Of a stretch of 64,000 nucleotides of DNA, positions 8,626 to 64,000 are shown piece by piece; position 1 is the stretch's first letter; the number at the start of each line of letters is the position of its first letter. The stretch spans positions 1-64,000 of the forward strand of contig JAOAJX010000005.1 in assembly GCA_026413945.1 (NCBI GenBank). Direction: 5' to 3'. Position numbers and translations under genes: made by a program. Under the pieces are notes generated by a model. It saw only the letters and a list, made by a program, of their open reading frames with translations, made no database searches and was not told where the DNA came from. This DNA is from Candidatus Iainarchaeum sp. (GTDB lineage: Archaea > Iainarchaeota > Iainarchaeia > Iainarchaeales > DTGL01).

Positions 8626-8629
8626 GATA

Positions 8630-11600
8630 ATGAAGATAAAAAAGATGTTTTTGTTAGCATTTGCAACCTTAATTTTTGCTGAATCTTTTGCCGGAACACT
8701 TAATGTAACTGTAAACCCAAACCCATTTGAGCAAGGTAGCCTTACAACTTTTACAATATACCTCCCACAAAATGAAACCGTCAGAACCCTTACGATTGAC
8801 TTTTATTCTGGTACTCAGTTCTTATTCCAGGTTTCTCCAAGAATAACTAGTCCAACAACTCTTTACGGCTGGAACGGTTGTAACCCTAATAATAACCAGT
8901 GCCTCCCGCCTGGTACTTATTCTTATGTTGTGAAAGCAGGCTGTGGTTGTGGTGGAAGAAGCACCTACGAGGCCACTGGCAACGTAACAATTGTTGCTGC
9001 TGGTGGTGGTACACAACCACCAAGCGGCTGTTATGCCACAGAAAGTGAGTGCAAAAACAATAACGCACACAAATGCAATTGTGGGCAAGCAGTTAACTGC
9101 CAATATGACTCTGTAAACAAATGCTATCTCTTTAGTAACTGTGATAATTCAAAGTGTGCTTCTGGTGGCGGTGGTGGTACACAGCCACCAACAGCAAAGG
9201 TTTCAGTAACTTCTTTTTTGCAAATGATTGGTCAGTGCGGAGCAATAAACTATGCCGCAATTGCTGAGTGTCCAACAGAGGGTCCTACTGCATACCCTGA
9301 AGAAGGAAAGTTGGGTTATTGGTGCAAAGTAAGGAATGCTGGTTCGCCAGGACAAGAAGGTGCGATAAGATATTGGGCGGTTTTGAGTAATGATCCTAAT
9401 AATCAATATGATGACCTTTCATATGAGATTTACATTTTCTACGCAAAAAGAGTATGTCAAAATCCGCCACAGGCTGAATATGTTGGTTGTGATCAATGCA
9501 TATTGTTACTTGAAAATATGAATGTTGTTCACGAAGCACCAAAATCAGTTGTTGATGGCGCTATTGCAACATTAAAGAGACACCAAAGTTGTGGCGGTGG
9601 CGGTGGTGGAGCACCAGGCCCAGGGCCTGGTCCAGGCCCAAGCACACCAGCACCGCCTTCATCGCCCTCACCTCAACAATCCCCTGCTCCAGTACCATCA
9701 CAAGAGCCACCAGCGAGCGGCGGTGGCATAACAGCAGATGCTAGGCCAAACCCCTTCCAACAAGGTAGCACAACAACATTTACTATTACTGCTCAATCAG
9801 GCCAAGCGATTTCACAAATATACATTGAAATTTATGACCTTACCGGAAGCAAAGTCTATGATAGCGGGTGGGTTAATGGAAATAAGTTAGTTTGGAACGG
9901 TATTGGTAATTATGGCAGATGGAATAACGTTGCGTTGAGGACACAGGCATACATTTTTGTTGCCTCAGCAAAGGTTGGCTCTGAAACAAAGGGCCCAGCA
10001 AGAGGTTATGTTTATATAGTTCCGGCTAGTGGTGGTCCAGCAAAATCGCCTTCACCAGGCACTAGCCAAGGCCCAGGCGGCCCAGCACAATCACCTGGGC
10101 AAAGCCCAGGGCAGCCAGCAACGCAAGTACCACCAGGTAATGAATGCCAAACAAATGCTGACTGTGTTTGCAATGACGCCTGCTATAATGGGCGTTGCAT
10201 ACACCCAGAGCTTACAATAAATGGAAGCGCAAACACTCTTTTGGCATATACTGGCAAACCTTTAGAAACAACGATTGTTTGGACAATAACTAATGCTGGA
10301 GATGATGCCGCAGTGCTAAAAGATGTGAAGCCCAGCGGCTGCGAAAACGTAACATGTGAACTTCAAATTCAGGCAGGCACAACTATAAAAATAGCCGGCA
10401 ATACCAATCAGGAGCTTAGGAAGAAAGATTCAAAAATAAATCTTGAAGGTAAAGATACAAAAGTTATTGAAAAAGGATTGAAGTTAGAATTACAGAGCAA
10501 CTTTAAATTTGATTATGGCGAAGTTGAAGTTGGCCTGGACTGGAAAGCAGTCAAACTGAAGAACATTTACACAAGCCCAATAGTTGTTGCTAAGCCAATT
10601 GAATCTTGCTCTAGCAATGGCAAAACACAATGTGACAAGGTTGTTGTGAGGATTAAAAACGTGCAGACAAATTCTTTTGAAATCAGACTGCAAAAATGGG
10701 GTGAAGGTTGGAACCAACCTCTCACAAGGAACTATAAAGTTCAGTACCTTGTTTTAGAAGAAGGTACAAATGACTTAAATGGACTTCAAATAGAAGCGGG
10801 TAAGTTTAAAGCCACACAAAGCGTAGTCTTCAACATATATAAAAGCAAATTCTCTACTACACCAATATTAATTACAAGCATAGCTACCTTTAATGGATCT
10901 CATCCTGCAGTTACCAGAAATCGGAACCCAATCCCATGTGTTGGAGTCTTTGCATTATTCTGCAAAATCGCTAATTTCGCAACAAACATACAGGAAGAGA
11001 AAACATTACTTAGGTATATTCATAGTGAAGAAGAAATTCATTATGTAGCCATTAGCACAGGTAAGGCGATAATTGGCGATACTCAATGGGAAATTAGGCG
11101 TATTCAAGGTGTTAACGATGAAGGTACTACAATATTCTATGAGAGCGACTTCCCAGAAACACCAATAGTAATAGCCGATTTTCAGACTGTTAATGATGAC
11201 GATCCGATAATGCTTAGATATTATAAGAAAGAAAGAGATTCAATACACTTCTTTGCTGCTGAAGAAGATTCATCTTTAATTGACATTTGTTGGTGGTGTC
11301 ATAGACCAGAAGATGTTGGCTATATTGCAATAGCCAAAACCGGATCAACAGGCCTTAAAGCAGTCATTGAAACAGACAAAGATGGCTGTACTTGCCCCCC
11401 ATGCACAATAAACTTTGACGGGTCAAAAAGCACAGGAAACATTGTCAGCTATGAGTGGGACTTCGGTGACAATAATGCCAAAGCAACAGGCCAGAAAGTA
11501 TCATATACTTACACTAAAAATGGAACTTATACAGTAAAGCTTACAGTGAAAGATTCTAACGGGAATAGTGCAAGCGCAACAAAGACAATAACTGTAAGCG

Positions 11601-13279
11601 ATTGTACGCAGCCGATAAAAGGAACCGTTATAGAGCCAGGAAGAAGTATAAAAATAATACAGAAAGTGAAAGGCCTTAACCCAGGAAAGTATGAGTTTGA
11701 CCTGCAGGCATCATACACAGACCTCTTCAATGCTAGTGCCAAACAAACAAATGAATGGAAAAAAATAATTGTTGAAGTCGCAAAGCTCGGAAGTGAGAAG
11801 TTCTCTGTAAAGCTTGTTGGTGAAGAGCAGGATTTCTGCATAGGCCCCAATGGATTGTTTGGCATTACCGGAAAAGCAGCGGTTCCTAAGGTAAAGCTAT
11901 CTTGGCAATTTGAAGGTGATGCTGCAATAAAAATTGATGATTGTGATGATAAGGGCACTGATAGTTTTATCTATTGTGATCCAACCCAATTCTCAATAGC
12001 GCTTGCCCAAAAACTTAAAAAAATATATGAATTAGCATCAAACAAAAGATATGCTGAAACAAAATCTTATACTTCCTTCAAAGCGCACTTAATAGGTGAC
12101 AATTATTCTGAGAATTTCCAAAAAGACTTTGTTAAGGCATATACCGAAGGATTCCTCAAAGCGCCGACTTGGTTTATATCGGGTGCAACACCTTGGAGCA
12201 AATATTTTTCTGATCCAAACGCCCTGAGTTTCGAGCCGAGGCAAATTGATAGTGGCCTTTACATCGTAACATTAGATATAAACTTCAACACTGAGGACTG
12301 GGTATTTTTTAGAGAAGGTAAGCCAGATGCTAAAATTAAAGTCAAATTCGAAAAAGTACGTGATGCTGCAGCAGATGTTGAGGAAATACCATTCTACTAC
12401 TTACCTTTCAATGGTCTTGTAGGAAAAGACGGGCGCACAGATTATGGCATTGGCTACACTAACCAAAACAACCCAATCGTAATAAGTGTTGTTGGAAATG
12501 CTGATAAAATTGAAACAAGCACCCCAAGAGGAAGAATGCATATTAGTACAGCCATATATAGCGAACTTAAAGATATTTTGAATGCACAAAATAATCTTTT
12601 CAAAGTCGATTTGGCTGGGAAGAAGATTGAGCTCTACATCAGCCAACCGATGCCAATTCTAATGGGTATAAGAAGCAAAAATGGTCGTGGAGAATGTTTC
12701 TATAAAATATACAGCTTACAATCTGCAATTGGCTCTGGATTTGATGGCATAAGCTACTGGACAGGCATAGCAACGTCGCCAGACCTCAATTGTCGCGACT
12801 TTTCTGGCTTAGAACTGCCTCTAAAGAAGAAAGACACACAGGCAGCCCTTATAGACAGCAGCTGTGCAGCAAAAAAGAACAATCTGCCAGCGTTTGGCTT
12901 TTACTGGAATGGTGTTCCAAACAACCAAAGTTTGTTCTTGAGCACTGTATTCTATACACCACATGGTAAAAAAATGAGCATATCCAATGCATGTAGTTCA
13001 GATGTTTGTTTATTGGCCTCTAAATCAGGATTATCAAGAGACATAGGTGAAAGTTTAAGCTTAGATAGTTCACTTAAGGCAGAAAAAATAAGTGAAATAA
13101 TCCCTCTTATTGAGCAAGAGTATGTTTGCATTGTGCCAGAATTAGAAGGTGTTCACCCATCACAGAATAGCTATGTCTTCTTCTGGAACGAGCAAAAGCT
13201 CCTAAAAGATTTAGAGATAGCTAAGACAAGGGTTGCGAGCGAATGGGGATTTAACTGGCAGAATTATAAATGCGATTGA
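8630..13279 (+). CDS. Giant secreted mosaic surface protein (FlgD-Ig-like x2, Cys-rich, Pro/Gly linkers, lectin-like repeats, PKD)
   Basis: Signal peptide MKIKKMFLLAFATLIFAESFA; two PNPF.QGS.TTFTI domains; PKD motif FDGSKS.GNIVSYEWDFGD. Confidence 0.8.
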   Translation: MKIKKMFLLAFATLIFAESFAGTLNVTVNPNPFEQGSLTTFTIYLPQNETVRTLTIDFYSGTQFLFQVSPRITSPTTLYGWNGCNPNNNQCLPPGTYSYVVKAGCGCGGRSTYEATGNVTIVAAGGGTQPPSGCYATESECKNNNAHKCNCGQAVNCQYDSVNKCYLFSNCDNSKCASGGGGGTQPPTAKVSVTSFLQMIGQCGAINYAAIAECPTEGPTAYPEEGKLGYWCKVRNAGSPGQEGAIRYWAVLSNDPNNQYDDLSYEIYIFYAKRVCQNPPQAEYVGCDQCILLLENMNVVHEAPKSVVDGAIATLKRHQSCGGGGGGAPGPGPGPGPSTPAPPSSPSPQQSPAPVPSQEPPASGGGITADARPNPFQQGSTTTFTITAQSGQAISQIYIEIYDLTGSKVYDSGWVNGNKLVWNGIGNYGRWNNVALRTQAYIFVASAKVGSETKGPARGYVYIVPASGGPAKSPSPGTSQGPGGPAQSPGQSPGQPATQVPPGNECQTNADCVCNDACYNGRCIHPELTINGSANTLLAYTGKPLETTIVWTITNAGDDAAVLKDVKPSGCENVTCELQIQAGTTIKIAGNTNQELRKKDSKINLEGKDTKVIEKGLKLELQSNFKFDYGEVEVGLDWKAVKLKNIYTSPIVVAKPIESCSSNGKTQCDKVVVRIKNVQTNSFEIRLQKWGEGWNQPLTRNYKVQYLVLEEGTNDLNGLQIEAGKFKATQSVVFNIYKSKFSTTPILITSIATFNGSHPAVTRNRNPIPCVGVFALFCKIANFATNIQEEKTLLRYIHSEEEIHYVAISTGKAIIGDTQWEIRRIQGVNDEGTTIFYESDFPETPIVIADFQTVNDDDPIMLRYYKKERDSIHFFAAEEDSSLIDICWWCHRPEDVGYIAIAKTGSTGLKAVIETDKDGCTCPPCTINFDGSKSTGNIVSYEWDFGDNNAKATGQKVSYTYTKNGTYTVKLTVKDSNGNSASATKTITVSDCTQPIKGTVIEPGRSIKIIQKVKGLNPGKYEFDLQASYTDLFNASAKQTNEWKKIIVEVAKLGSEKFSVKLVGEEQDFCIGPNGLFGITGKAAVPKVKLSWQFEGDAAIKIDDCDDKGTDSFIYCDPTQFSIALAQKLKKIYELASNKRYAETKSYTSFKAHLIGDNYSENFQKDFVKAYTEGFLKAPTWFISGATPWSKYFSDPNALSFEPRQIDSGLYIVTLDINFNTEDWVFFREGKPDAKIKVKFEKVRDAAADVEEIPFYYLPFNGLVGKDGRTDYGIGYTNQNNPIVISVVGNADKIETSTPRGRMHISTAIYSELKDILNAQNNLFKVDLAGKKIELYISQPMPILMGIRSKNGRGECFYKIYSLQSAIGSGFDGISYWTGIATSPDLNCRDFSGLELPLKKKDTQAALIDSSCAAKKNNLPAFGFYWNGVPNNQSLFLSTVFYTPHGKKMSISNACSSDVCLLASKSGLSRDIGESLSLDSSLKAEKISEIIPLIEQEYVCIVPELEGVHPSQNSYVFFWNEQKLLKDLEIAKTRVASEWGFNWQNYKCD

Positions 13280-15108: not shown

Positions 15109-18100
15109 TTATTGCAAAAAATCAGCCAGCATTCTTTGTGATTTTGTTTGTGTTTTGAAAAGAGATCCTATCTCATCTTCAATTTGCAACACTCTTTGTT
15201 CCAAGTATTCTCCCAAACTATAATCTTTAATTATTTTTTTGGTAACTTCTAAGTATTTTTCAACGCTACCTTGAGCTATTGTTAATGTAAGACCTTCCTT
15301 GCCACATTTTAAACATTTTCCACTGAGTGGTATTCTCCTATATTTTGAATTGCAATTAGTACACCGAAACTGTTGCCTGCAGAATGACCTCGTGTTCCCT
15401 ATAATATCAGGCAAGAGATGAGTTTCTATTACCCTTGCAAGAGAGTCTTTTAGATTAACTGCCTTTATTTTTCTCTGGAGCTGAGCTTGCCTGAAAACTT
15501 TTTCCTCCATAGTTTTGAGCATTACATACGTTGAGTACTCTGGTCCTAAACAAATATCAGAAGATTCATGTGTATACAGAAAGCCACTATACTGTTTTTC
15601 AGTGTTAAGACGGTCTTCAACACATTCAAACTTAACTGCTTCAGGCATGGCAAAATTTAGGCTTTTCTCATATAATTCTAAAGGATATTTATCCACAATA
15701 TCCATGCAATAAACTTCAGTATCTATTTCATCTGGCTTCAGAATAGTAGTGAAAACCAAGGGTGCATCCATTCTCCCTCCGCGAGAACTCGAAAGATATT
15801 CTTGTGAAAAATTTAGTAGTACATCCATAAGCAACAGCAGCGAATCCTGATCACCATCCGCATTTCTCCTTTTCGTCTGGTGAAAATATGGGTGTGCCAA
15901 ACATCCTCTAGTTTTTGTAAAACCTATTATTCTTCCAACTATTGCTGCTGATGTGTGTGGTGCAAGTGCAAGTACATAATGGCCTACCAAATCTTCCTTA
16001 GTTTTTACATTATAAAACGGCTTCATTCCATAGAATCTATTAAGTTCGTCGTCAACAAAGTTCGCGACTTTCACTAAAAAGTCACCAGCCTTATTATGTA
16101 TAATTATGTCTTGCGGCATTATTTCCAAGATTTGCTCTTCACTTATAATATTACATCCAAATAAATCATTTTTATAGCCCAATTCTTTGAGCTTTTTTAT
16201 ACTTGTATTTATCTCTTTTGGTTTGAAGTGGGTGATTGGAATATTTATGAGATCATATCGTATTGTCCCATCTCTGAATGTGTGCAAATTGTATTTTGCC
16301 CTCAATAAGCCTTTTTCCAATGGTTCAAATACTTTATCAGTACTTATTAATCCATGAACCCCTTTAAATGGGTTTGGAATCTTTAGATCTAATTCATTAG
16401 CGGCTTCTTTTAGTAACAAATCTAATCTTTCCTTTCTAACAGCATATGGCTTTGTGTAATTTCCACACTTATCACAAACTTTATCTTGTACTTTTATTTT
16501 ACATGACGGGCAAAAATTTACTGAAATCGTCCGACATTTACACTTGTTGCAGAAGTATTTTGGCATAATCTGATTACATTTTGGGCATTGCATGGTTATT
16601 ATTTCAATATCAATTCCAATTCTTTTCTCCGATTCCATCGCGGCTTTATTTATGCTCCTAGTGTTACCCCCATATTCACCAATAGGAAACAAAGTGTGTG
16701 GGCTGCCTTTCATAAGCCTTTCGCCAGAAGCTTCAGGCCTGCCCATCCTCGCGCCTAGAAAAGTTCCACACTTGTCCCTTATCCTAATACCACACAAGCG
16801 ACTAATAAACTTGTTAACGTCTTCGCCAACATTCATTGCTGCTTTATCTATTTCAACTTTTCCAAATAAAGAAATAAGAACTTCTGAATCAGGTTCACTT
16901 ATAACTATTTTTGACTCCTGACATTTGTGTGGTAAACCAATCTTTTCAAGGATTTCTTTTATACTCCTTTCGTATTCAATCATAAGCTCTTTTTCGTTAT
17001 TGCTATAATTTCTCCTAACTGCTCTTACCAGTGCCTTAATTTCTTCAGTATTTAAAGCCCCATAATAGTATGTGAAGCGTGGATGTAACGGTATGTTATA
17101 TCTTTTAGATAGCTCAATTGCATCATTGAAAGAAACTTTTTTCGGATCATTCAATGCTTTTAAAGCTATCTTATGTTCTTCACTGGCCAAATTGTTTGCT
17201 TTGATTGCTTCTTCAAGCTCTAGCGCCCACCAATCTTCATTATAGCCAGCTGGCAATAAAGGATGTGCACTGTATTTGAAATCGCCATACGCTATAAGTA
17301 TATCTCCCAAAAAGAGAATCTTATCCAACTTATCTTTAATTGCTTTTGCCTGCTCAAATGAATCAACTTTTACAACTGATTCATCATTTAATTTTACAAT
17401 TGGACCTTCGATGCTATCACAAGAAGTTATAACTGCCGATTTGCCGGGCCTTTCAATTTTTATCTGCGTGCCTATCGCAAGAAAATCGTCTAGCAATACC
17501 ATCGTTGCTGGATGAACTGCTTTGCACATGATGCCGCTTGCTCTGCTTCTACCGTACCTTAGCCTGAAACCACCAATCTCTCCGGGATAACTGAAAATCG
17601 GTCTTCCGACAGCAACACCTTCCAGGTACTTGTAACTAGGTTCAATTTCCAAAATAGATTGTTCGCTTTTCTCATGCTTTATTATTCCTTCGAGCCAATT
17701 CCAATCAAGGTTTAACATCGATGCAAACTTTAGTGCTTTTCTTGCTTTTAATGCGACACCCTCACTTATGACTAGGCAAGCACCACCTCTAACTCTGTTA
17801 TGAGGTATCCTTGGAAGGTCTCTATGAACAGATACCTCTCGCTCTTCTGTTGGTTCACCATTTATGCAAACAGGACAACCGTTTATTATTTTCCGTATCT
17901 CATCGTCGCTCATTTTATATTGTCTACTAACTATTTCATCATAGATCTGTATCTCTTCAACATATCTCTCGACTTCGTCTTTTGTTGGTTTGTATCTGTC
18001 GAGGCCTAAAAGCTTCCTTGCATAATCACCAAGTATAAGCGGTAAAACTTGTGCAGTTCCTCCGGCAGCTCTTATTGGACCAGCATAGTATATATCTATG

Positions 18101-18528
18101 TAATTTGTGCCATCAGGATTCTTTGATATTTTTATTTTAGTTATACCATCTATTGGCGCAACAACCACTCCTTCAGTCTGAAGCACCAAAGCTGTTTTTA
18201 TTGCTTGCTCAATCCTATTTTCCTCATTTGGAATATTACAGATTTTATTTAGAACAATCTCCTCAAAAATCTTAAATATCGCTTTAATGCGCTTGTTTTC
18301 CCCGGAAAGCCCATCTACTATTTGACGATATCTTTTGGCAACACCTTTTGGACCAGTTATAGTTTCAGCCCTCTCAGCAAGATCGCTAACCGACCTGGTT
18401 TCAACGTCTTCACAAAAATCAAAACCTTTTTTTCTTGCTTCTTTTGCTATAGAAAAAGCATTTCTAACGTCTACCTCTATTTTCTTATAGTATTCTTTAA
18501 TATTTGCGTCTGCAATAACTTCCATCAA
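15109..18528 (-). CDS. polC: DNA polymerase D large subunit DP2
   Basis: YAGPIRAAGGTAQ, GFRLRYGRSR, RRNADGDQD, RGGRMDAPLV and Zn-finger Cys clusters; no intein apparent. Confidence 0.96.
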   Translation of the reverse strand: MMEVIADANIKEYYKKIEVDVRNAFSIAKEARKKGFDFCEDVETRSVSDLAERAETITGPKGVAKRYRQIVDGLSGENKRIKAIFKIFEEIVLNKICNIPNEENRIEQAIKTALVLQTEGVVVAPIDGITKIKISKNPDGTNYIDIYYAGPIRAAGGTAQVLPLILGDYARKLLGLDRYKPTKDEVERYVEEIQIYDEIVSRQYKMSDDEIRKIINGCPVCINGEPTEEREVSVHRDLPRIPHNRVRGGACLVISEGVALKARKALKFASMLNLDWNWLEGIIKHEKSEQSILEIEPSYKYLEGVAVGRPIFSYPGEIGGFRLRYGRSRASGIMCKAVHPATMVLLDDFLAIGTQIKIERPGKSAVITSCDSIEGPIVKLNDESVVKVDSFEQAKAIKDKLDKILFLGDILIAYGDFKYSAHPLLPAGYNEDWWALELEEAIKANNLASEEHKIALKALNDPKKVSFNDAIELSKRYNIPLHPRFTYYYGALNTEEIKALVRAVRRNYSNNEKELMIEYERSIKEILEKIGLPHKCQESKIVISEPDSEVLISLFGKVEIDKAAMNVGEDVNKFISRLCGIRIRDKCGTFLGARMGRPEASGERLMKGSPHTLFPIGEYGGNTRSINKAAMESEKRIGIDIEIITMQCPKCNQIMPKYFCNKCKCRTISVNFCPSCKIKVQDKVCDKCGNYTKPYAVRKERLDLLLKEAANELDLKIPNPFKGVHGLISTDKVFEPLEKGLLRAKYNLHTFRDGTIRYDLINIPITHFKPKEINTSIKKLKELGYKNDLFGCNIISEEQILEIMPQDIIIHNKAGDFLVKVANFVDDELNRFYGMKPFYNVKTKEDLVGHYVLALAPHTSAAIVGRIIGFTKTRGCLAHPYFHQTKRRNADGDQDSLLLLMDVLLNFSQEYLSSSRGGRMDAPLVFTTILKPDEIDTEVYCMDIVDKYPLELYEKSLNFAMPEAVKFECVEDRLNTEKQYSGFLYTHESSDICLGPEYSTYVMLKTMEEKVFRQAQLQRKIKAVNLKDSLARVIETHLLPDIIGNTRSFCRQQFRCTNCNSKYRRIPLSGKCLKCGKEGLTLTIAQGSVEKYLEVTKKIIKDYSLGEYLEQRVLQIEDEIGSLFKTQTKSQRMLADFLQ

Positions 18529-20461: not shown

Positions 20462-21553
20462 ATGTCCTTTGCTTTAGCCGTGGTGATTAATACGCTAAAA
20501 GTCAATTTTAGTAAAGTTTATGGCAAAAATTACAAGCTTTATATGATATTGCCAGCGATCCTTTTTTTCGTATTACCCATAATTGCTTTTATATACCCGG
20601 GCATTGAGCGAGGCGTAGATCTTAGCGGCGGAACACTGATTATAGTAAGATCCGAAAGGCAAATGGCTTATGAACGCTTGGAAAGCGCTCTTTCAAAGTA
20701 TGAGCTCGCAGAATTGAGCATAGTACCATTTTCTGGTGGGGTACAAATACACTTTGGGGCAAGTAAGAAAATAGAAGCAGCATCTAGATACATAAAGGAT
20801 GCGGAGAGCACACTTTCATCAAGCCCACAGCAAAGCTATGCATCATGTCAGAAAGCATTTTCAGAACTAAGTGCACTTTTTAAAGCAGAAGCACCAAAAG
20901 ATCCGAAAGAGTGCATTGAAGAAGCGCGAAAAACTGTTATTTTGAGCAGAGATTCTTTGAAGGATTCCATAAACAAAGACATTAAAGTAACACTAAATCT
21001 TAATGAGGTGGAGGTTGAAAAGATACAATATACTGAAATTTCACCAGCATTGGGTGCTCTATTTTGGGATTCAGCAATAAAAGCTATAATAATTGCTACA
21101 GTGCTGCTAATTGTTCTTATGTTCATTTTTTTCAGGGACTTTTTCCCGGTTATTGCAATACTACAAGCAGGCCTTTTTGATGTCTTATTTGCCCTTGCTG
21201 CTCTGGCTCTATTAAGGGTGCCTTTTTCTCTTGTAACACTTTCAGCACTCCTAATGCTTGTTGGCTACTCAATCGACACTGATATAATGCTAACTGCAAG
21301 GGTTTTGAAGGGCAGTGGAAAGCCAAAGGATAATGCTGCATCTGCTCTTAAAACCGGCCTTACTATGACAGGCATTACATTAATAACAGCAGCCATAATG
21401 CTTGTTTTCTCTTCAATTTACGCAATTGATATAATTTTTGGAATCTCCGTAGTGCTTTTCTTTGGTCTTCTCGGAGACCTTATTTCTACGTGGCTCATGA
21501 ATGCACCAGCAATCATTTGGTATGTTGAGAAAAAAGTGACCAAGCAAAGGTGA
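20462..21553 (+). CDS. secF: Protein translocase subunit SecF
   Basis: GVDLSGGT and GYSIDTDI motifs, six TMs. True start uncertain. Confidence 0.9.
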   Translation: MSFALAVVINTLKVNFSKVYGKNYKLYMILPAILFFVLPIIAFIYPGIERGVDLSGGTLIIVRSERQMAYERLESALSKYELAELSIVPFSGGVQIHFGASKKIEAASRYIKDAESTLSSSPQQSYASCQKAFSELSALFKAEAPKDPKECIEEARKTVILSRDSLKDSINKDIKVTLNLNEVEVEKIQYTEISPALGALFWDSAIKAIIIATVLLIVLMFIFFRDFFPVIAILQAGLFDVLFALAALALLRVPFSLVTLSALLMLVGYSIDTDIMLTARVLKGSGKPKDNAASALKTGLTMTGITLITAAIMLVFSSIYAIDIIFGISVVLFFGLLGDLISTWLMNAPAIIWYVEKKVTKQR

Positions 21554-21557
21554 TATT

Positions 21558-23192
21558 ATGGCAAATAACGCTTTGGAATTGCTCAAGAGTTATAGGATCT
21601 GGATCTTATTGCTCGGAATTTTAGCAGGCGCAATATGCTTAATGATTGCAGGTATAAACTTTGGCATTGACTTCGAAGGCGGAACAATGTTCCAAGTTCA
21701 GCTTAGCGAAAAGATTGATGCAACAAAAATGGAAGAGGTTTCAAATGTTATAGAAAAAAGACTGAATTGGAGTGGTCTTCAGGATGTTAGGGTGTATTCA
21801 ACATCAACAGAAGAAAACAATTTTCTCTTCATTGTTGTAAGAAATGTAAATCCTAAAGAGATTGAAAACCTTGGCTCACTGATAACTCAACAAGGAAGAT
21901 TTGAGGCAAAGCTTGGCAAAGATGTCCTCTTCACAGGAAAAGACCTATTAATGATAGATTCTGGTGTTAATACAAGCACTATAATGAAAGTATCTGAAAA
22001 TTCCTACAGATGGACGCTGCCTTTTGTGCTGGATGTTTCAGCAGCACGCCGATTTAGGGACCTAACATTTCACAAATGTGAGCCGATTATGCAAACGGGC
22101 GGTGAAATGGATTATGACTGTGAATATACCTATTTCTTTATTGATAGGCCTCACGATAGAGTAATTGTGCTCACATCACAAACTTATGAAAATGACAAAA
22201 TATATTTTTCTTCAGGCACTACTGAAGTGCCATCAGGAACAAAAATAGAAGATATAATCAATGTCATAGATACCAACGTTATCATTATAGACACGAATTC
22301 GCCGGAATCTATAAAAAAAGCAATTGATGATATAAATATTGCTCTAAAAGAGAAAAAAGGCATAATCGCTGATCCAACACTGGGCGATGCTTTAATAAGC
22401 AAACTTATTGACCTTAATACAAATGTGAAATTAGTGTATGGTTTAGAAAAAGAGCCATGGCTTTATAAGGCATCAGGTATGCGCTCTGTTGTGCGTTTAA
22501 CCCCCTCAGTAACGGGCAATAAGCCTTACATTGAGCGCAAGGAAGATATGCAGCCACTAACCGATTTGGTTATAACCGGCCATACAAATACCTACGCAGA
22601 GGCAAACAGAAGAAAAGAGGAGCTTAAAATAATACTTACTTCAGGATCTTTGCCAGTTTCCGTAGAAAGCATAAGCACATATTCAGTTTCACCCACTCAA
22701 GGAAAGGACTTTTTAACAAAGGTTGCTATTCTTGCAGCGATAGTCATCATTGTTGTATCATCATTAATTTTCCTTAGGTATAGAAAGCCGTTGCTTTCAA
22801 TTGCAATAATTTTTACTGCCCTCGTAGAAGCATTCCTTACGACAAGTTTTACTTCGTTTTTGGGTCAGAGCTTAGATATAGCAACCTTGGCAGGAATAAT
22901 TGCAGCAGTTGGCACAGGCGTAAATGACCAAATAATAATAACAGATGAACTGCTGCGCGGAAAGGAGGGTGAAGGAAAAGAAGAAGTCTCTTTGATAAGG
23001 CGTACAAAAAGGGCATTATTCATAGTTATTGCAGCAGCATCAACAACAGCAGCAACTATGCTGCCAGTTATATTTATGGGCAATATTCTCGTAAAAATAG
23101 TTGGCTTTGCATTTGCAATCCTCATTGGCGTCTTGGTTGGTGTTCTCATAACAAGACCAGCATACAGCGAAGTTGTCAAAAATCTCATATAA
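21558..23192 (+). CDS. secD: Protein translocase subunit SecD
   Basis: GIDFEGGT, L.SGSLPV, GTGVNDQIII and ITRPAY motifs. Confidence 0.9.
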   Translation: MANNALELLKSYRIWILLLGILAGAICLMIAGINFGIDFEGGTMFQVQLSEKIDATKMEEVSNVIEKRLNWSGLQDVRVYSTSTEENNFLFIVVRNVNPKEIENLGSLITQQGRFEAKLGKDVLFTGKDLLMIDSGVNTSTIMKVSENSYRWTLPFVLDVSAARRFRDLTFHKCEPIMQTGGEMDYDCEYTYFFIDRPHDRVIVLTSQTYENDKIYFSSGTTEVPSGTKIEDIINVIDTNVIIIDTNSPESIKKAIDDINIALKEKKGIIADPTLGDALISKLIDLNTNVKLVYGLEKEPWLYKASGMRSVVRLTPSVTGNKPYIERKEDMQPLTDLVITGHTNTYAEANRRKEELKIILTSGSLPVSVESISTYSVSPTQGKDFLTKVAILAAIVIIVVSSLIFLRYRKPLLSIAIIFTALVEAFLTTSFTSFLGQSLDIATLAGIIAAVGTGVNDQIIITDELLRGKEGEGKEEVSLIRRTKRALFIVIAAASTTAATMLPVIFMGNILVKIVGFAFAILIGVLVGVLITRPAYSEVVKNLI

Positions 23193-24361: not shown

Positions 24362-24501
24362 TGCTGAATTATAAATGCAAATTAGAGCTTGACGGTTCAA
24401 TAGAAATCATGTCCGGTACTGCAAGTTTAGACGAAATTTTAAAAATGATTGATTCAAAAATATCTAAAGCTAAAAAGGAGTGCGATTGTCGTGGCAAGTA
24501 A
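24361..24501 (+). CDS. 46-aa hypothetical ORF in the Pcc1 syntenic slot
   Basis: Hand translation MLNYKCKLELDGSIEIMSGTASLDEILKMIDSKISKAKKECDCRGK; GGTGA SD; overlaps both neighbours. Confidence 0.4.
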   Translation: MLNYKCKLELDGSIEIMSGTASLDEILKMIDSKISKAKKECDCRGK

Positions 24502-25081
24502 GAAACAGAGAAGCTCTTCAGACAAATGGAAGAAAAAAAAATGGTATAAAATTAAAGCACCTAAAGAATTTAAGGAAATCATCATTGGTGAGACCCCTGC
24601 TGAAAAAGAGCAACAACTAATTGGCAGAACCGTTGAGCTTCCTATTAGTGAAATAGCTGCACAAAAAAAGCAAGCACCTATGTTGATTAAACTTAGAATT
24701 GATGCTGTAAATGCGGGTAATGCCGAAACTAAACTTATAGGCTGCCGTTTTGACAGCGGTTATCTCAGGCGCATTGTAAGAAGAAGGAAGAGCAAAGTAG
24801 ATACAATACTTTATGTCGAAACTGCCGATAATAAAAAAATGAAACTAACAACAACAGCAATATGTGCCTCAAAAACAAACAAAAAAAAGGAAACAGAAAT
24901 AAGGAAGCTTGTTGCTAAAGAAATGGCTGAGGAAGCAAAAAAGGAAACATTCGAGAATTTTATGCTTAATGTTGTATCCGGAGCCCTCGCACAGAAAATT
25001 TTTAACAGCGTAAAAACAATAGCTCAATTACAAAGAGTTGAGGTTATAAAAGCCCATTTAATAGAAGGGAAAAATAAATGA
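24491..25081 (+). CDS. rps3ae: 30S ribosomal protein eS1 (S3Ae)
   Basis: DKWK.KKWY.I.AP, IGETPA, GRTVE and YLR..VRR..SKVD; GTG start. Confidence 0.93.
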   Translation: MASKKQRSSSDKWKKKKWYKIKAPKEFKEIIIGETPAEKEQQLIGRTVELPISEIAAQKKQAPMLIKLRIDAVNAGNAETKLIGCRFDSGYLRRIVRRRKSKVDTILYVETADNKKMKLTTTAICASKTNKKKETEIRKLVAKEMAEEAKKETFENFMLNVVSGALAQKIFNSVKTIAQLQRVEVIKAHLIEGKNK

Positions 25082-25791
25082 GCTCCGATTTTGATGCGTT
25101 AATTGTCCTTTTAACAATCATATTTTTTTCTTTTTTCTCATTTTACAAGAAGCTATTGAGTAGGGATGGCATATTTTTTGCTAATATATTCGGCATTGCT
25201 GTTTATTTTTTGGGTGGATTAAAAGCATTTACAACAATTTTATTATTCTTCTCTATTGCTGAAATTGCAACGATGTTTGGCAGAAGTAATTTTAAGCCAC
25301 ATGGAAAGAGAGATGTTGGAAACATAATAGGTAATGGTATGCCAGCCTTAGTTGCGTTATTGCTCGGTTCTACAATGGGTTTTTATGGTGGTATAAGCGC
25401 CGCTTTATCTGATACAATGTCTTCAGAGATTGGCTTGATATCAAAAAAAAAGCCAAGATTAATAACAAACCTTAATAAAGAAGTTCCACGCGGCACTGAT
25501 GGTGGCATAACATTGCTAGGCCTTTTTGCTGGTATCATTGGGGCTTTTCTAATAGGTTTTACTTTCTTTTTATTTAATTTGAACGAATACACTATTTGGA
25601 TTTCTTCTTTGGGCTTTTTTATAATATTTTTAAGCGGTTTCACTGGTTGTATTATCGACTCTCTTCTTGGAGCTGTTTTTGAGACTAAAGGTTTGCTGAA
25701 TAATACATGGGTTAATTTTTTGAGCTCTTCTAGTAGTGCATTTTTAGCCAATTTTTTATGGTATTCTCTTTTTTGGTTGTCAAACTTTTAG
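25078..25791 (+). CDS. DUF92/TMEM19 family integral membrane protein
   Basis: R...N..GNG, DT.SSEIG, PRLIT...VP.GTDGGIT.LG, DSLLGA and N..VNF motifs. Confidence 0.88.
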   Translation: MSSDFDALIVLLTIIFFSFFSFYKKLLSRDGIFFANIFGIAVYFLGGLKAFTTILLFFSIAEIATMFGRSNFKPHGKRDVGNIIGNGMPALVALLLGSTMGFYGGISAALSDTMSSEIGLISKKKPRLITNLNKEVPRGTDGGITLLGLFAGIIGAFLIGFTFFLFNLNEYTIWISSLGFFIIFLSGFTGCIIDSLLGAVFETKGLLNNTWVNFLSSSSSAFLANFLWYSLFWLSNF

Positions 25792-25830
25792 TAGAAGTTA
25801 ATATAAGATTTTTGTCTTAAATCTTAGCTT

Positions 25831-26331
25831 ATGCTTTATTTACTGATATCTATTGCAGCATACTTAGTTCCAATATATGTTGCAAATGCATGTGCTCTAA
25901 TCTTTGGTGGTGGCACGCCACTTGACCTTAACAAAAAACTTTATGGCAAACCAATATTTGGCAAAGGCAAAACCATAAGGGGCACTTTAGCAGGCATTGT
26001 ATTTGGATTAATCGTTGTTTTTCTTCTGGATTCTCTTATGCCAAAATGGTTTGTTGCAGACTATTTAATTTTTGGAGTTTTTCTTGTATTTGGAGCCGTT
26101 TTTGGCGATATAGCTGCATCTTTTCTCAAGAGGCGCATTGGTTTGGAGAGCGGCGCACCAGTTCTTTTTTTAGATCAGCTCGACTTTGTTTTTGGCAGCC
26201 TTATTTTGACTTTGCCTATTAGAATGCCTAATTTTGCAGAAGTAATCTTAATCTTCTCATGCACTTTCTTAACACATAAGGCGACAAATTATATAGCGTA
26301 TAAACTAAAGATTAAGAAGGTTGCGTGGTAA
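25831..26331 (+). CDS. carS: CDP-archaeol synthase (DUF46)
   Basis: PxY.AN, P.D, FG.GKT.RG, GD...SF.KRR.G...G, LDQLDF and terminal K.V.W. Confidence 0.9.
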   Translation: MLYLLISIAAYLVPIYVANACALIFGGGTPLDLNKKLYGKPIFGKGKTIRGTLAGIVFGLIVVFLLDSLMPKWFVADYLIFGVFLVFGAVFGDIAASFLKRRIGLESGAPVLFLDQLDFVFGSLILTLPIRMPNFAEVILIFSCTFLTHKATNYIAYKLKIKKVAW

Positions 26332-26332
26332 G

Positions 26333-26851
26333 ATGCGCAACAAGAAGAGGAAACTTAACTTTGGTGACGATGATAGAAAAAGAGAGCTATATTTCCTTTT
26401 AAAATTCTTTCTAATATATGGCGCCCTTCAAACAATAATATATTTTGCTGATGTTGCCTTTGTAACCAACTGGATAGCCTCCTTTGAGGCTTCACTATTC
26501 AGTCTTCAGAGCCAAGGAAATACAATAAGATCAGGAACAGTTGTTTTTGTAATAAATAACTCCTGCACCGGACTTGTTTCTATATCTGTGCTTGCAGCAA
26601 TTGTTTTTTCCTTCAGGAGGCCATCTTTAAAGGAAAAAATCATGGTTTTTTTGCCTTGTTCAGCCATACTTTTTTTAGTAAATCTAGCTAGAGTATACGC
26701 TGTAATTTATGCTGGCGTTCATATAAACCACAACTTAGTTGAACCTTTGCATATAAGTAGCTGGTTCTTAATGTCTGGTGCAATAGTTATTTTATGGTAT
26801 TTTGGCACAAAAAAGTTTGCAAAAATAAAATACTTTAAAGAACTTCTTTGA
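26333..26851 (+). CDS. Exosortase/archaeosortase family protein (compact)
   Basis: Multi-TM protein with the triad Cys (INNSCTG), Arg (VNLARV) and His (EPLH). Confidence 0.8.
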   Translation: MRNKKRKLNFGDDDRKRELYFLLKFFLIYGALQTIIYFADVAFVTNWIASFEASLFSLQSQGNTIRSGTVVFVINNSCTGLVSISVLAAIVFSFRRPSLKEKIMVFLPCSAILFLVNLARVYAVIYAGVHINHNLVEPLHISSWFLMSGAIVILWYFGTKKFAKIKYFKELL

Positions 26852-26901
26852 ATATACAAAAATGGGCAAAGTATTTTATTTCTTTAAAACCTCTTTTAAT
26901 T

Positions 26902-27519
26902 ATGCATAATAAAGAAAAAATTAGGACAGAGGTTCCATTGCTTAATCTAGAACTCTCCAAATTATTCGGTAACAAAAAGCTATTCATACTAATTGTGACA
27001 CAACTTTTCCTTTTAGCAGGTACTGCACTCATGGTTTACAAAATATTAGAACCATCCTTTGAACACATGTCTTTAAAGGTTTCAAATGACTCTCGTAGCT
27101 ATATTGCCTTAGCCCTTTTTGTGTGCTCTTTGTTTGTAATAAACAAAGCACTAAAAAAGAAAAAAAGCAGACTCTACATGTTGCAACTAGAGGCTGGCGA
27201 AACTCTTAAAAGAAACTTTAAGCAAAAAGTAAAAGCCCAAAAAGAAAATCCATTTGGCATAGCTCTGCTTTTGCTTGAGTTTATACTAGTTATTGTGCTC
27301 GCCGGTGCTATAGATGCCTATCTCATAATAAAAGATACGCATACAGAAATGCTTTCATATCAAGAAGAATTTTTTTTATTTGTGGCAAAGGTGCTTATAT
27401 TCTTAGCAATACTTTTTTTTGTGGTTTGGCTGCACAGATATGCTAGCAGTTTCGACTCAATAAAGTTTAGAGGCAGAAGCGCAATCAAAATACTCCGAGA
27501 TAGGAAAGCTTGTCCATAA
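26902..27519 (+). CDS. Hypothetical 4-TM membrane protein
   Basis: ORF 26848..27519 with four hydrophobic segments; ATG at 26902 preferred. Confidence 0.6.
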   Translation: MHNKEKIRTEVPLLNLELSKLFGNKKLFILIVTQLFLLAGTALMVYKILEPSFEHMSLKVSNDSRSYIALALFVCSLFVINKALKKKKSRLYMLQLEAGETLKRNFKQKVKAQKENPFGIALLLLEFILVIVLAGAIDAYLIIKDTHTEMLSYQEEFFLFVAKVLIFLAILFFVVWLHRYASSFDSIKFRGRSAIKILRDRKACP

Positions 27520-27534
27520 AATGTTGGCATTAGG

Positions 27535-28548
27535 TTAAGCCCAAAGTATTTTTTCTTCCTCCAATCTCATTCTTTGTTTTATTTGACTACTTCCAATTTC
27601 AGTTTTTTTGCCATACAAATACTCTAATATCCCAAGCCAAGCAATCATCACGCCATTGTCTACACAAAACTTATTTTGCGGAACCAAAAATTTTGTATTA
27701 CGAGAAATGCACATCTTAAACATAATGTTGCGAAGTGCTTTGCTTGCGGCCACCCCACCCACAAGCAAAACCTCAGTTTTTTCAGTATAGGCAAGCGCCC
27801 TTTCAGTGGCTTCCGTAAGCATTGCAAACGCGTTGTGAAGTGTACTAAAAACAAGATTTTCTTTATTGGTTTTTCCTACCAATCTCTTGGCCGCGGTTTC
27901 AAGGCCAGCGAAAGCCAGATCCGTCCCTTTCACAGTATAGGGAAGAAAAAGGTATTTTTTGCCTCTAAAGTAAATTTCATCCAAAGTAGGGCCTGCAGGA
28001 AAGCCGTAGCCGAGTGCTCTGCCGAAAGAATCGAGCATATTTCCAAGACCAATATCTAAAGTTTCACCGAATACCCTGTAAGCGCCATCTTTAAAAGAGA
28101 TTATCTGAGTATTCCCACCACTCACGTAAACTATTAAAGGATCCTTAGCTTTAGTTTCAAGCTTTCCTATCTCGATGTGTGCTAAGCAATGATTAACAGG
28201 AATAAGTGGCTTCCCATTTTTTAAAGCAATAGCTCTTGCACAAGTAGCCCCCACTTTCAAGCATGGGCCAAGTCCTGGACCACGAGCAAATGAAACAATA
28301 TCACAATCACTTATTTTAATTTTTGCCTCATCAAGTGCTTCTTTAATTATTTTTGGAGCATTGTCCAAGTGCTTTTTTGCTGCTTCTTGTGGCCTTATTC
28401 CACCATCAGATAAGAATGAAATCCTCTTATCAGCTATAACCTTGCCCTTTGAATCTACAATGCCAACTCCAAATGTATGGGCTGTGCTCTCAATCCCTAA
28501 GCAAATCTTTTTCTCCAAAAGCACCATTCTCGGCTTCATTATTTCCAT
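27535..28548 (-). CDS. kae1: KEOPS t6A synthase Kae1/TsaD
   Basis: GIESTAHT, GPGLGPCL, HCLAH, VSGGNT, GETLDIG, GGVAA and DNG.MIA motifs. Confidence 0.95.
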   Translation of the reverse strand: MEIMKPRMVLLEKKICLGIESTAHTFGVGIVDSKGKVIADKRISFLSDGGIRPQEAAKKHLDNAPKIIKEALDEAKIKISDCDIVSFARGPGLGPCLKVGATCARAIALKNGKPLIPVNHCLAHIEIGKLETKAKDPLIVYVSGGNTQIISFKDGAYRVFGETLDIGLGNMLDSFGRALGYGFPAGPTLDEIYFRGKKYLFLPYTVKGTDLAFAGLETAAKRLVGKTNKENLVFSTLHNAFAMLTEATERALAYTEKTEVLLVGGVAASKALRNIMFKMCISRNTKFLVPQNKFCVDNGVMIAWLGILEYLYGKKTEIGSSQIKQRMRLEEEKILWA

Positions 28549-60967: not shown

Positions 60968-62794
60968 TTAAGAGCTTAATTTTTTGCTTCTTCTAACTAA
61001 TGTTAAAACAATTAAAGAAACTATTAATACAAGGGCAAAATTTATTTCTGGGGCAGTACTGCTTTTTAAAATCTTGGCTTCCAAAACACTGAATGAGGCA
61101 CTCTTTGTGCATTCTGCGCCACCGCAATTCTTTAAGCTTGCAATTACCTCATATTCACCAATTTCTGTTAATGGTCCGTAGCTAGTATGTGTGCCACAAG
61201 TAATATTTTGTATAGTTGTGGCTTGATGCCCTTTCCTAACTATAATATCGACTGTTCGCGTTCCTGAGCAATCGACAAATATTGTGGTGTTTTCCCCTTG
61301 TGTGACATTTTCTACTCCGAGGGCTGTTATTCCCTTAAATGAATAGACATATATTGTTCTGCTAGATTCACTAGAAGCTCCGTACTCATCAGTTGCCCTT
61401 AGTTTTACTGTATAAGTACCAACGTCATTGTAAGTGTGTGCGGCATTTTTTCCATCTTTTTTTATTCCATTGCCGAAATCCCATTCATATGTGGCAAAAT
61501 GGCCATCTTTTTCAGGTTCTTCAACATATAATGAAATCCTTAAAGGCGCTTTACCTTCAACCGGCTCAACAATGAATTTAGCACTAGGGGGGGTATTTTT
61601 TACAGTAACGCTTTTCACCTGCATTGATGACATTGGGGTTGAGCCAAGCCCAGAATCTTTCACAGTTAGCTTTACATTGAAAGTTACTTCTTCTGGTATT
61701 GGCTTTTTTGTATAAGTGTGCTTCACCTTTTTTCCATTAGCTATACTGCCGTCGCCAAAATCCCATTCATATTTTGCAACATAGTCACCCAAGCCAATGT
61801 CAGGGTCGCTTGAACAGCTAGCATCAAAAATAAATTCAGTTACTCCAACAATACCTTCTTCAGGCATAATATCGAAACAGGCGTTTGGTGGCCAATTTTT
61901 CGAAACAACATTTAGCAATATTTCTGTGGAATCTGTTAATCCAGCAGCGTCAGACACTACCAGCTTAACTATATAAGAACCCTCTTTCATAAATGACTTT
62001 GTTACAGTAGTCCCTGCTGCTGAGCCAAAATCGCCGAAGTCCCATTTGCAGATAATATCTGTAGCTTCCGGATCATGGCTTTCGCTACAGTCAAAAATAA
62101 CACTTTGCCCAACAGAAATCTCGACATTTCTACCGCTTATGAAAGGAATTGTTTTTATAACTGCTTTTGGATTGCAATTGCCAATTCCTTGTATTTCTGA
62201 ACAACCATATGGACAATCATATATATCACACCTAGTGTTTATTATCCTCGAGTTACACTTGCCAACATTGCAGTAACCTTCGACTTTTGTTCCATATTTG
62301 ATTTTTTGAGTTTTAGTTTTTCCTTGTGCAACACATTTCCATTCTCCACATTCAGTTGTTTTGCTCAATCTGTTGCAATCTTCTTTTTCATTGAGCCACC
62401 CATTGCAGCTGTCGTAGACCCAGACATCTGATTTTTCAGTGCAGTTATTTTCATCACAGATAATTCTGTTATAGCACTTTGGCTCTTGTTTACATGCGCT
62501 AAAGACAAATGGGCTAACATTCAAAATCTTTGCATTACAATTACAAATTATTGGTTTATAACACGGAATACAATTGCTATTTGGTGTGCAGAGAGCATCG
62601 CACGAACCATCACTCAAACTTACACAGTAATTTGCAACTTCACATTCACAAAAATCTTTGCAGAATGCATTGCAAGCAGCTTCTGCCTTAGATTTTGCCA
62701 CAACCATGTCACCGAAACAAACTTGCATCTGAGCTGCTAAAGAGCCAATCGAAAATAGAATGAAAAATAAGAAGATTTTCTTTAAAGATTTCAT
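60968..62794 (-). CDS. Cys-rich PKD-domain surface protein with a PEIN-TM-basic C-terminal tail
   Basis: Signal peptide, ~190-aa Cys-rich N-region, three PKD repeats (WDFGD/N) and the tail APEIN-FALVLIVSLIVLTLV-RRSKK. Confidence 0.85.
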   Translation of the reverse strand: MKSLKKIFLFFILFSIGSLAAQMQVCFGDMVVAKSKAEAACNAFCKDFCECEVANYCVSLSDGSCDALCTPNSNCIPCYKPIICNCNAKILNVSPFVFSACKQEPKCYNRIICDENNCTEKSDVWVYDSCNGWLNEKEDCNRLSKTTECGEWKCVAQGKTKTQKIKYGTKVEGYCNVGKCNSRIINTRCDIYDCPYGCSEIQGIGNCNPKAVIKTIPFISGRNVEISVGQSVIFDCSESHDPEATDIICKWDFGDFGSAAGTTVTKSFMKEGSYIVKLVVSDAAGLTDSTEILLNVVSKNWPPNACFDIMPEEGIVGVTEFIFDASCSSDPDIGLGDYVAKYEWDFGDGSIANGKKVKHTYTKKPIPEEVTFNVKLTVKDSGLGSTPMSSMQVKSVTVKNTPPSAKFIVEPVEGKAPLRISLYVEEPEKDGHFATYEWDFGNGIKKDGKNAAHTYNDVGTYTVKLRATDEYGASSESSRTIYVYSFKGITALGVENVTQGENTTIFVDCSGTRTVDIIVRKGHQATTIQNITCGTHTSYGPLTEIGEYEVIASLKNCGGAECTKSASFSVLEAKILKSSTAPEINFALVLIVSLIVLTLVRRSKKLSS

Positions 62795-63401: not shown

Positions 63402-63998
63402 TCATTTGCCAAATTCTTTACTGTTGCCACAAGACCTAGCCAAAATCAGTACAATCATAGCTATTGCAACAATTGCAATAATATTTGTCTCCGAAGCTTC
63501 AACTTGGGCTTCTTCATAAACATTAAACGAAGTTGTTTTGCTGCATTCCATCCCTGAGCAATCAGCAGAATCCGCAATAACTGTTGCTTTATATACTCCA
63601 GCCTCAGTCAAGTAGTTGCCTGGTATTGTTGATACCGAACCATTTGTGCTGCATGGCACGCCACCAGGATAGTTTCTTGTTGCACCATTTGGTGCTTCAA
63701 TTATAAGTTGGTGATTTTGGCCTTCCAACCCTTCTGTACAGCGCACAGTTATGACTGTATCTGTTCTAACTTTTGTATTCCTCACCCTTACGTCCGTTAT
63801 CGCCTTCATCGTGTAGACTAGTATGTCAAGATTATAGATGGTTTCCCCACCAAACCCATCAGTGACTATTAACCTTGGATAATAATTCCTTGGGTCATTA
63901 TATATGTGTATATTCTCACAACCACTAGCTGAGGTGCCATCATCAAAGTTCCAATCACAATTCACATTATGTCCGTCGTCATCTTTTGCAATTGCTTT
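63402..63998 (-). CDS. PKD-domain surface protein, 5'-partial, with a SETN-TM tail
   Basis: Frame open to the window end (KAIAKDDDGHNVNCDWNFDDG); C-terminal domain paralogous to 60968..62794. Confidence 0.8.
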   Translation of the reverse strand, partial: KAIAKDDDGHNVNCDWNFDDGTSASGCENIHIYNDPRNYYPRLIVTDGFGGETIYNLDILVYTMKAITDVRVRNTKVRTDTVITVRCTEGLEGQNHQLIIEAPNGATRNYPGGVPCSTNGSVSTIPGNYLTEAGVYKATVIADSADCSGMECSKTTSFNVYEEAQVEASETNIIAIVAIAMIVLILARSCGNSKEFGK

Positions 63999-64000
63999 GA

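Follow-up and report, generated by a model that had tools for sequence, protein, structure and literature searches.

Archaeosortases cleave surface proteins and may couple them to membrane lipid. To our knowledge, sortase-type lipid anchoring in archaea has been studied experimentally only for ArtA of Haloferax, and we know of little work on how surface proteins are built and anchored in DPANN archaea. In the ArtA/PGF-CTERM/PssA-PssD system (Haloferax volcanii, Methanosarcina), the sortase is encoded by a 912-bp gene, artA, and both its synteny with pssA (and pssD) and a genetic requirement have been published (PMC7157517). In a model that its authors describe as speculative, the amino group of archaetidylethanolamine, the product of PssA and PssD, attacks the acyl-enzyme (PMC7157517). 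According to a review, putative sortase catalytic triad residues are conserved in archaeosortases (PMC6098224). Here, we describe a locus of Candidatus Iainarchaeum sp. in which carS, the gene for cytidine diphosphate (CDP)-archaeol synthase, is followed by a gene for a minimal protein of the exosortase/archaeosortase family, which we call Sort1. The locus lies in a stretch of 64,000 nucleotides (GCA_026413945.1, contig JAOAJX010000005.1, positions 1 to 64,000), hereafter the window. It is a probable carS-archaeosortase operon of the known archaeosortase/CTERM type, whose link to a lipid gene extends the ArtA-PssA precedent. The explanation we favour, with confidence a little above even, is that carS and sort1 form an operon and that Sort1 is an active minimal archaeosortase, processing surface proteins with a common C-terminal tail.

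The genome under study (948,649 bases in 21 contigs, 92% complete, 35% G+C) belongs to Iainarchaeum, which the NCBI taxonomy places in the kingdom Nanobdellati, which corresponds to DPANN. The DPANN-type host proposed by a first-pass annotation of the sequence agrees with this placement, and related records carry the labels Candidatus Iainarchaeum or Diapherotrites. That annotation had also pointed to three tightly spaced, co-oriented genes, for a DUF92 protein, CarS and an exosortase/archaeosortase; the coordinates of the open reading frames (ORFs) and the scores of profile hidden Markov models confirm both the arrangement and the identities (Table 1). The sort1 ATG comes 1 nt after the carS stop codon (TAA, 26329-26331); read from an open TTG slightly upstream, Sort1 would have 176 aa instead of 172. 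The gap between the DUF92 gene and carS is 39 nt.

The pairing of carS with sort1 is conserved. Among 40 relatives of the same order, 33 have a strong Sort1 match (E≤1.3e-17), 38 have CarS and 38 have DUF92, and 32 of the 33 carry carS immediately upstream of sort1 in the same orientation. The lone exception (G016) has the two genes on separate contigs, each at a contig end, so that its arrangement is unreadable. A scan with the Sort1 alignment, one genome per species, returned 36 loci from the same genome collection, and hence overlapping with the order set; carS is directly upstream in all 36. In other orders of the class, the pair is adjacent in 10 of 19 genomes (families f33, f35 and f36, genus g77), and five further genomes are unreadable or lack one of the two genes. 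Two of the 36 loci are labelled Candidatus Micrarchaeia, and here SppA and CarS-Sort1 are kept while the other flanks are unrelated. Spacing between the carS stop and the sort1 start is -11 to +19 nt for 61 of the 72 locus records, some of them duplicates and thus not all independent; judged from sequence, this spacing is typical of translational coupling. No insertion between carS and sort1 was seen in the mapped loci, while both flanks vary. The survey thus upholds the adjacency of carS and the sortase gene that had been noted at first pass, and by gene order these two are the only conserved unit among the three genes.

Sort1 itself is recognizable as an archaeosortase-family protein. It scores above the superfamily cut-offs of TIGR04178 (42.2 against 23 bits) and PF09721 (35.3 against 25.7 bits); TIGR04178 is matched by all 24 aligned orthologues, which are 30-72% identical to the window Sort1, and NCBI annotates its close relatives as 'exosortase/archaeosortase family protein'. 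Cys78, Arg120 and His140 (numbered from the ATG) are invariant in the 24 orthologues, as are G80, P97, K102, N117, W144 and W155, and the three are also conserved in all 32 rows of a wider alignment, whose motifs read C-(T/S/N)-G, N-x-x-R and H-x-x-(S/T/G)-W. All three residues fall inside the region of Sort1 aligned to the TIGR04178 signature (residues 73-157). This position and the invariance in every aligned orthologue both support the Cys-Arg-His triad, predicted from the outset for the third protein, as its putative catalytic set. The hydropathy profile has four membrane segments, and the basic N-terminus, an inner loop (RRPSLKEK) and the basic C-terminus fit an N-in topology. Under the positive-inside rule, this predicted topology would place C78, R120 and H140 at the outer ends of helices. 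An AlphaFold2 model (mean predicted local distance difference test, pLDDT, 92.8; predicted TM-score, pTM, 0.84) has helices at residues 12-38, 81-93, 99-131 and 133-163. No solved structure resembling Sort1 was found, either by a PDB sequence search at E≤1 or by Foldseek, whose best E was 1.0 with TM-scores <0.4.

Sort1 represents an unnamed sub-family, since it falls far below the cut-offs of the closest named ones. Its best sub-family matches, ArtD (TIGR04175), ArtE (TIGR04124), pacearchaeosortase (NF033505) and exosortase X (XrtX; NF046081), are similar in size (profiles of 150-168 positions), yet the window protein reaches only 31.3 of 125, 31.4 of 95, 20.7 of 80 and 30.8 of 170 bits, respectively, against their curated cut-offs. 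It is also below the heimdallarchaeosortase cut-off, and ArtA, ArtB, ArtC and ArtF are not among its matches at E≤0.1. At E≤1e-3, ArtD is matched by 24 of the 24 orthologues, pacearchaeosortase by 22, XrtX by 19 and ArtE by 18. In a collection of 1.84 billion representatives, the Sort1 family numbers 67 members at E≤1e-30, 187 at E≤1e-10 and 1267 at E≤1e-3. The best 150 of these 1267 profile matches are 68-237 aa long and include no CarS-sortase fusion; none was seen among longer proteins either, although this is weak evidence.

Candidate substrates emerged from a screen of all ORFs of the genome for products that end in a helix and a basic stretch. Seven proteins with further similarity seeded a tail profile, which found an eighth, non-seed protein (the window gene at 63402) with an E of 1.2e-8, the next match being at 0.0094. 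Eight full-length proteins of this genome have a common C-terminal domain of ~48 aa; a ninth is a fragment at a contig end. The tail follows the pattern Cx2C ... [FY]-x-[VI] ... A-(S/P)-E-x-(N/H), then a helix and Lys/Arg residues, and its Glu is invariant. All eight proteins have signal-peptide-like N-termini, and PKD or Ig-like domains are present in both of the two that were scanned. The 608-aa PKD protein of the window, which has such an N-terminus, ends in ...STAPEINF, a membrane helix and RRSKK, and the tail of the second window gene reads ...EASETNI before its helix. The motif is clearer in relatives, where 17 tails fetched across families read (A/V/T)-P-E-(I/T)-(N/H/P)-P, helix, R/K and stop; an eighteenth (L129) is cut short where its contig stops. 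These tails resemble those of the PEP-CTERM, PEF-CTERM and Loki-CTERM systems in having a Pro-Glu motif directly before the C-terminal helix and basic cluster, and in occurring on secreted proteins, several per genome. They differ in the additional upstream Cx2C...[FY]xV and in remaining under the cut-off of every catalogued CTERM model, whether full proteins or 10 isolated tails are searched (the best on the tails being Loki-CTERM, 16.0 against 19.9 bits, and PEF-CTERM, 12.8 against 23 bits). The tail is probably a new, uncatalogued sorting signal.

The distribution of the tail was compared with that of Sort1. A 25-row tail profile and a Sort1 profile (E≤1e-12) were run on 201 genomes of the class, and matched 137 and 175 of them, respectively. 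Four genomes (G023, G024, G034, G037) have lost Sort1 and retained carS, as checked by synteny; the tail profile gives one partial match in the first of these and none in the other three. The genomes are related, and hence not independent, and a short profile loses sensitivity with distance; we regard the pairing of Sort1 with the tail as likely. Some other leads were set aside. A tail match in the Sort1-less G034 is not C-terminal and looks false. Tail genes seen by eye 2.3-4.5 kb from sort1 in five genomes (G011, G012, G057, G155, G175) were dropped as being at about chance level. Presence of the tail in 14 of 21 genomes with Sort1 as the sole detected sortase was not used, since incompleteness alone would yield that many such genomes.

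In the explanation we favour, carS and sort1 would be a tightly coupled two-gene operon. The residues C78, R120 and H140 of Sort1 would meet the (A/V/T)PE(I/T)(N/H/P) motif at the outer membrane face. Sort1 would most likely cleave the C-terminal helix and basic tail off at least eight secreted surface proteins and, by analogy with ArtA, might transfer the newly formed C-terminus to a membrane lipid. Transcribing the sortase gene together with carS would keep the sortase level in step with the supply of polar lipid derived from CDP-archaeol. The active site of CarS faces the cytoplasm, and the Sort1 residues are predicted to face outward; hence, co-expression or lipid supply is a more plausible basis for the association than channelling.

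Compared with the ArtA system, the likeness is threefold. Both sortases belong to the TIGR04178 superfamily, with conserved Cys/Arg/His-type residues (in Sort1, as read from sequence); the substrates, candidate ones in our case, carry a tripartite C-terminal signal of motif, membrane helix and basic tail; and in both cases the sortase gene lies beside a gene of polar-lipid biosynthesis. The differences are considerable. Sort1 has 172 aa, as against the 912-bp artA, and the ArtA model TIGR04125 is matched by just 12 of the 24 orthologues at E≤1e-3. The motif on the Sort1 side is (A/V/T)PE(I/T)(N/H/P) after Cx2C, rather than PGF. The neighbouring lipid gene is carS, whose product acts one step before PssA, and genes for PssA-like and Psd proteins were not found here.

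The last point comes from searches for lipid genes in the genome under study (G000) and four good relatives. All five genomes encode GGGPS, UbiA-type prenyltransferases, HMG-CoA reductase and GGPP synthase. Salvaged isoprenoid, which the first-pass annotation had considered as the source of lipid, is therefore not needed. Each genome has a single CDP-alcohol phosphatidyltransferase gene (PF01066); that of G000 is nearest to archaetidylinositol-phosphate synthase, at 83.3 bits and thus below the cut-off of 180. Phosphatidylserine decarboxylase (PF02666; Psd) was found in none of the five, and a PssA-like gene was not found in G000, where the arch_ser_synth model reaches merely 24.3 against 240 bits. 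The lipid genes named at first pass are thus present in part: GGGPS, UbiA-type enzymes, HMG-CoA reductase and one CDP-alcohol transferase are there, whereas PssA and Psd were not detected. Because these two were not found, the ethanolamine-lipid route of Haloferax may not apply, and the ArtA analogy on which the first-pass annotation leaned is weakened. For genes of the iron-dependent alcohol dehydrogenase type (PF13685, PF00465), which stood in for glycerol-1-phosphate dehydrogenase, candidates were found in G027 and G028 but not in the other three genomes, G000, G004 and G013. One could go further and suppose that the carS-sort1 route is chemically unlike that of ArtA, with another CDP-archaeol-derived lipid, such as an inositol- or glycerol-headed archaeol, as acceptor; that the product of CarS is limiting for anchoring; and that the pair is an ancestral envelope module of Iainarchaeota and some Micrarchaeia-labelled lineages. 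We regard this extended version as doubtful.

Several alternatives need to be considered. It was initially suggested that all three genes form one module, in which the DUF92 protein would be a prenyl-phosphate kinase acting on salvaged isoprenoid, CarS would activate the lipid, and the sortase would attach it. The three genes are indeed adjacent and co-oriented in the window, and DUF92 adjoins carS in 11 of 37 related loci, window counted. The protein shares DUF92 family membership with plant VTE6, described as a phytyl-phosphate kinase (PMC10849223), and the failure to detect glycerol-1-phosphate dehydrogenase-type genes in three genomes may mean that the lipid pathway is incomplete. However, the one lead to its activity is the published function of VTE6, and the window protein falls under the TIGR00297 cut-off (137.2 against 205.85 bits). 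Its gene is consistently paired with S3Ae and not with carS: the two overlap by 4 nt in the window, S3Ae is directly upstream of DUF92 in every related locus where both are visible, and in relatives DUF92 is the final gene of a Bud32-S15-S3Ae-DUF92 string. An opposite-strand SppA gene stands between DUF92 and carS in 26 of the 37 loci. Two genomes that retain carS-sort1, G021 and G033 (each 83% complete), gave no DUF92 match; the gene is 7-8.5 kb from carS in G011 and G012, and ~400 kb from carS-sort1 in G203, one of the two genomes with a Micrarchaeia-labelled locus described above. Given this separation, and these losses and distances, the trio resolves into two units, a ribosomal-protein unit (S15-S3Ae), of which DUF92 is probably the last gene, and the carS-sort1 pair. 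DUF92 presumably adjoins carS in the window because the SppA gene that usually intervenes is missing; neither a profile search of ORFs nor tblastn found SppA in the G000 assembly. With HMG-CoA reductase and GGPP synthase present, moreover, the module would have no need of salvage. Taken together, the three-gene proposal seems to us improbable. The carS-sort1 pair may have a promoter of its own in the TATA-like TTAATATAAG; many related loci have comparable A/T boxes 22-37 nt ahead of carS. In so AT-rich a genome, this is a weak hint.

It is also possible, although we think it unlikely, that carS and sort1 simply belong to an envelope-biogenesis block (SecD/SecF, SppA, sortase, CarS) kept by descent, with no specific biochemical link between the two, and that Sort1 merely cleaves or releases its substrates. 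Gene maps of 37 loci point to an ancestral order of Bud32-S15-S3Ae-DUF92, opposite-strand SppA (TIGR00706, 205.6 bits against a cut-off of 155.45), CarS-Sort1 and opposite-strand SecD-SecF. Synteny of this entire block extends throughout the order, and SppA, SecD and SecF are protein-export genes. A number of observations weigh against the explanation we favour. Much of the adjacency of the pair falls within this larger inherited block, so that its conservation within the class overstates selection on it. In four genomes of genus g74, of the same class, carS has no sortase gene beside it, the two being on different contigs. In a sample of a second DPANN group (Micrarchaeia-labelled), CarS is found in 61 of 61 genomes (a tally that takes in the unpublished G236, none of whose loci was used), and among the best 30 of the 61 CarS loci only 4 have Sort1 downstream; the other 26 have no sortase but unrelated genes there, whereas a divergent SppA gene adjoins carS in ~19 of the 30. 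In two genomes, G014 and G019, carS is gone, but a divergent Sort1 (with Cys, Asn-x-x-Arg and His) persists intact beside DUF92; no CarS match was found in G014, whose assembly consists of one contig at 94% completeness. That Sort1 had been lost together with CarS, at one point a candidate interpretation of these two genomes, was rejected on this account. Sort1 therefore does not need a carS of its own, and these lineages may depend on outside polar lipid. Since the four Sort1-loss genomes described above keep CarS, the two genes are lost separately, and the link is not obligatory. The failure to find PssA and Psd points in the same direction. Against a mere shared inheritance, the pair mostly stays within -11 to +19 nt of each other while both flanks rearrange, it reappears in the second group amid unrelated flanks, and a link between an archaeosortase and a lipid head-group gene has been published on the basis of synteny and genetics (PMC7157517). 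Other counter-evidence concerns the tail, and could mean that a second sortase is the processing enzyme for PE(I/T)(N/H)P tails, while Sort1 has a role elsewhere, tied to CarS or membrane lipids. Two TIGR04178 genes are present in G000 and most relatives. The distributions of Sort1 and the tail disagree in family f31 (17 of 18 genomes against 4 of 18) and in family f32 (6 of 7 against 0 of 7), and G023, which lacks Sort1, keeps a protein with IPEIP, a helix and RFRKKK, followed by 18 further residues. But the second sortase of G000 lies outside the window, in a type IV pilus-like cluster (L014, L044) that also includes two pilin-like small proteins, a 2692-aa surface protein, a T2SSE ATPase and a T2SSF platform protein; this points to another set of substrates. 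All four Sort1-loss genomes still possess other sortase genes, and three of them nevertheless have no tail match. Finally, Sort1 appears to retain all catalytic residues of the protease family. We therefore give this reassignment of the tail little credence.

The pairing of SppA with carS is itself a conserved feature, the two being divergently arranged side by side in 26 of 37 related loci and ~19 of 30 in the second group. SppA could clear the membrane peptides left by the sortase.

Downstream of sort1 lies ORF4, which encodes a multi-pass membrane protein and whose start overlaps the sort1 stop by 4 nt. Homologues were seen in the closest relatives alone (L002, L003, L051); there, ORF4 rather than SecD-SecF follows sort1. 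It matches no Pfam or NCBIfam family, and a protein atlas had no usable match. ORF4 probably extends the carS-sort1 operon in this genus. The window order is a rearranged version of the order-wide block, in which SecD-SecF sit downstream of Sort1. Here, SecF-SecD are upstream of Bud32, and Kae1 converges on ORF4; ORF4 and Kae1 are downstream neighbours in G002, G004 and L051 as well. The window also contains three very large ORFs (1685, 1549 and 1139 aa), which are not among the candidates from the screen for a C-terminal helix and basic tail.

Table 1. Features of the carS-sort1 locus, the candidate substrates and related loci (window coordinates unless a contig or locus is given; bits with cut-off where available)
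Feature	Position	Strand	Length	Evidence and remarks
Very large ORFs	3568-13279	+		
Very large ORF	15109-18528	-		
SecF-SecD	20462-23192	+		Upstream of Bud32
Ribosomal protein S3Ae	24449..25081	+		PF01015 162.4 bits; stop overlaps DUF92 start by 4 nt
DUF92 (VTE6/TMEM19-family) integral membrane protein	25078..25791	+	237 aa	PF01940 159.7 bits (cut-off 27.5), residues 13-219
TATA-like TTAATATAAG	25798..25807	+		~29 nt before carS ATG
CDP-archaeol synthase CarS	25831..26331	+	166 aa	NF003114 162.1 bits (equivalog cut-off 148); PF01864 142.7 bits (cut-off 22)
Sort1, exosortase/archaeosortase family, minimal	26333..26851 (open TTG at 26321)	+	172 aa	TIGR04178 42.2 bits
ORF4, membrane protein without known family	26848..27519	+	223 aa	
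Kae1	27535-28548	-		Converges on ORF4
Candidate Sort1 substrate, secreted PKD-domain protein	60968..62794	-	608 aa	PKD_4 149.9 bits
Second tail-bearing gene, 3' part	63402..64000	-		Continues to C17:65318 beyond the window; contains masked bases
Type IV pilus-like cluster	C18:31235-45828			Contains the second sortase
Second sortase of G000	C18:37029-37679		216 aa	TIGR04178 35.1 bits
Divergent Sort1 without CarS (G014)	L041 3024-3455		142-143 aa	
Divergent Sort1 without CarS (G019)	L042 2606-3034		142-143 aa	

A link between carS and an archaeosortase was not found described in the literature, including PMC7157517, PMC9385802 and PMC8305020, although their supplements may mention one, and a full-text literature search for archaeosortase together with DUF46 gave no result. 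The probable carS-sort1 operon would tie archaeosortases to polar-lipid synthesis at the genomic level for a second time, independently of the artA case. With PssA and Psd apparently missing, one may ask whether a lipid acts as the acceptor at all and, if so, which one. The locus offers a compact and testable system, consisting of a 172-aa enzyme with predicted catalytic residues and a candidate motif on surface proteins of the PKD/Ig type. The tail signal, in turn, provides a route to predicting the surface proteome of Iainarchaeota from sequence.

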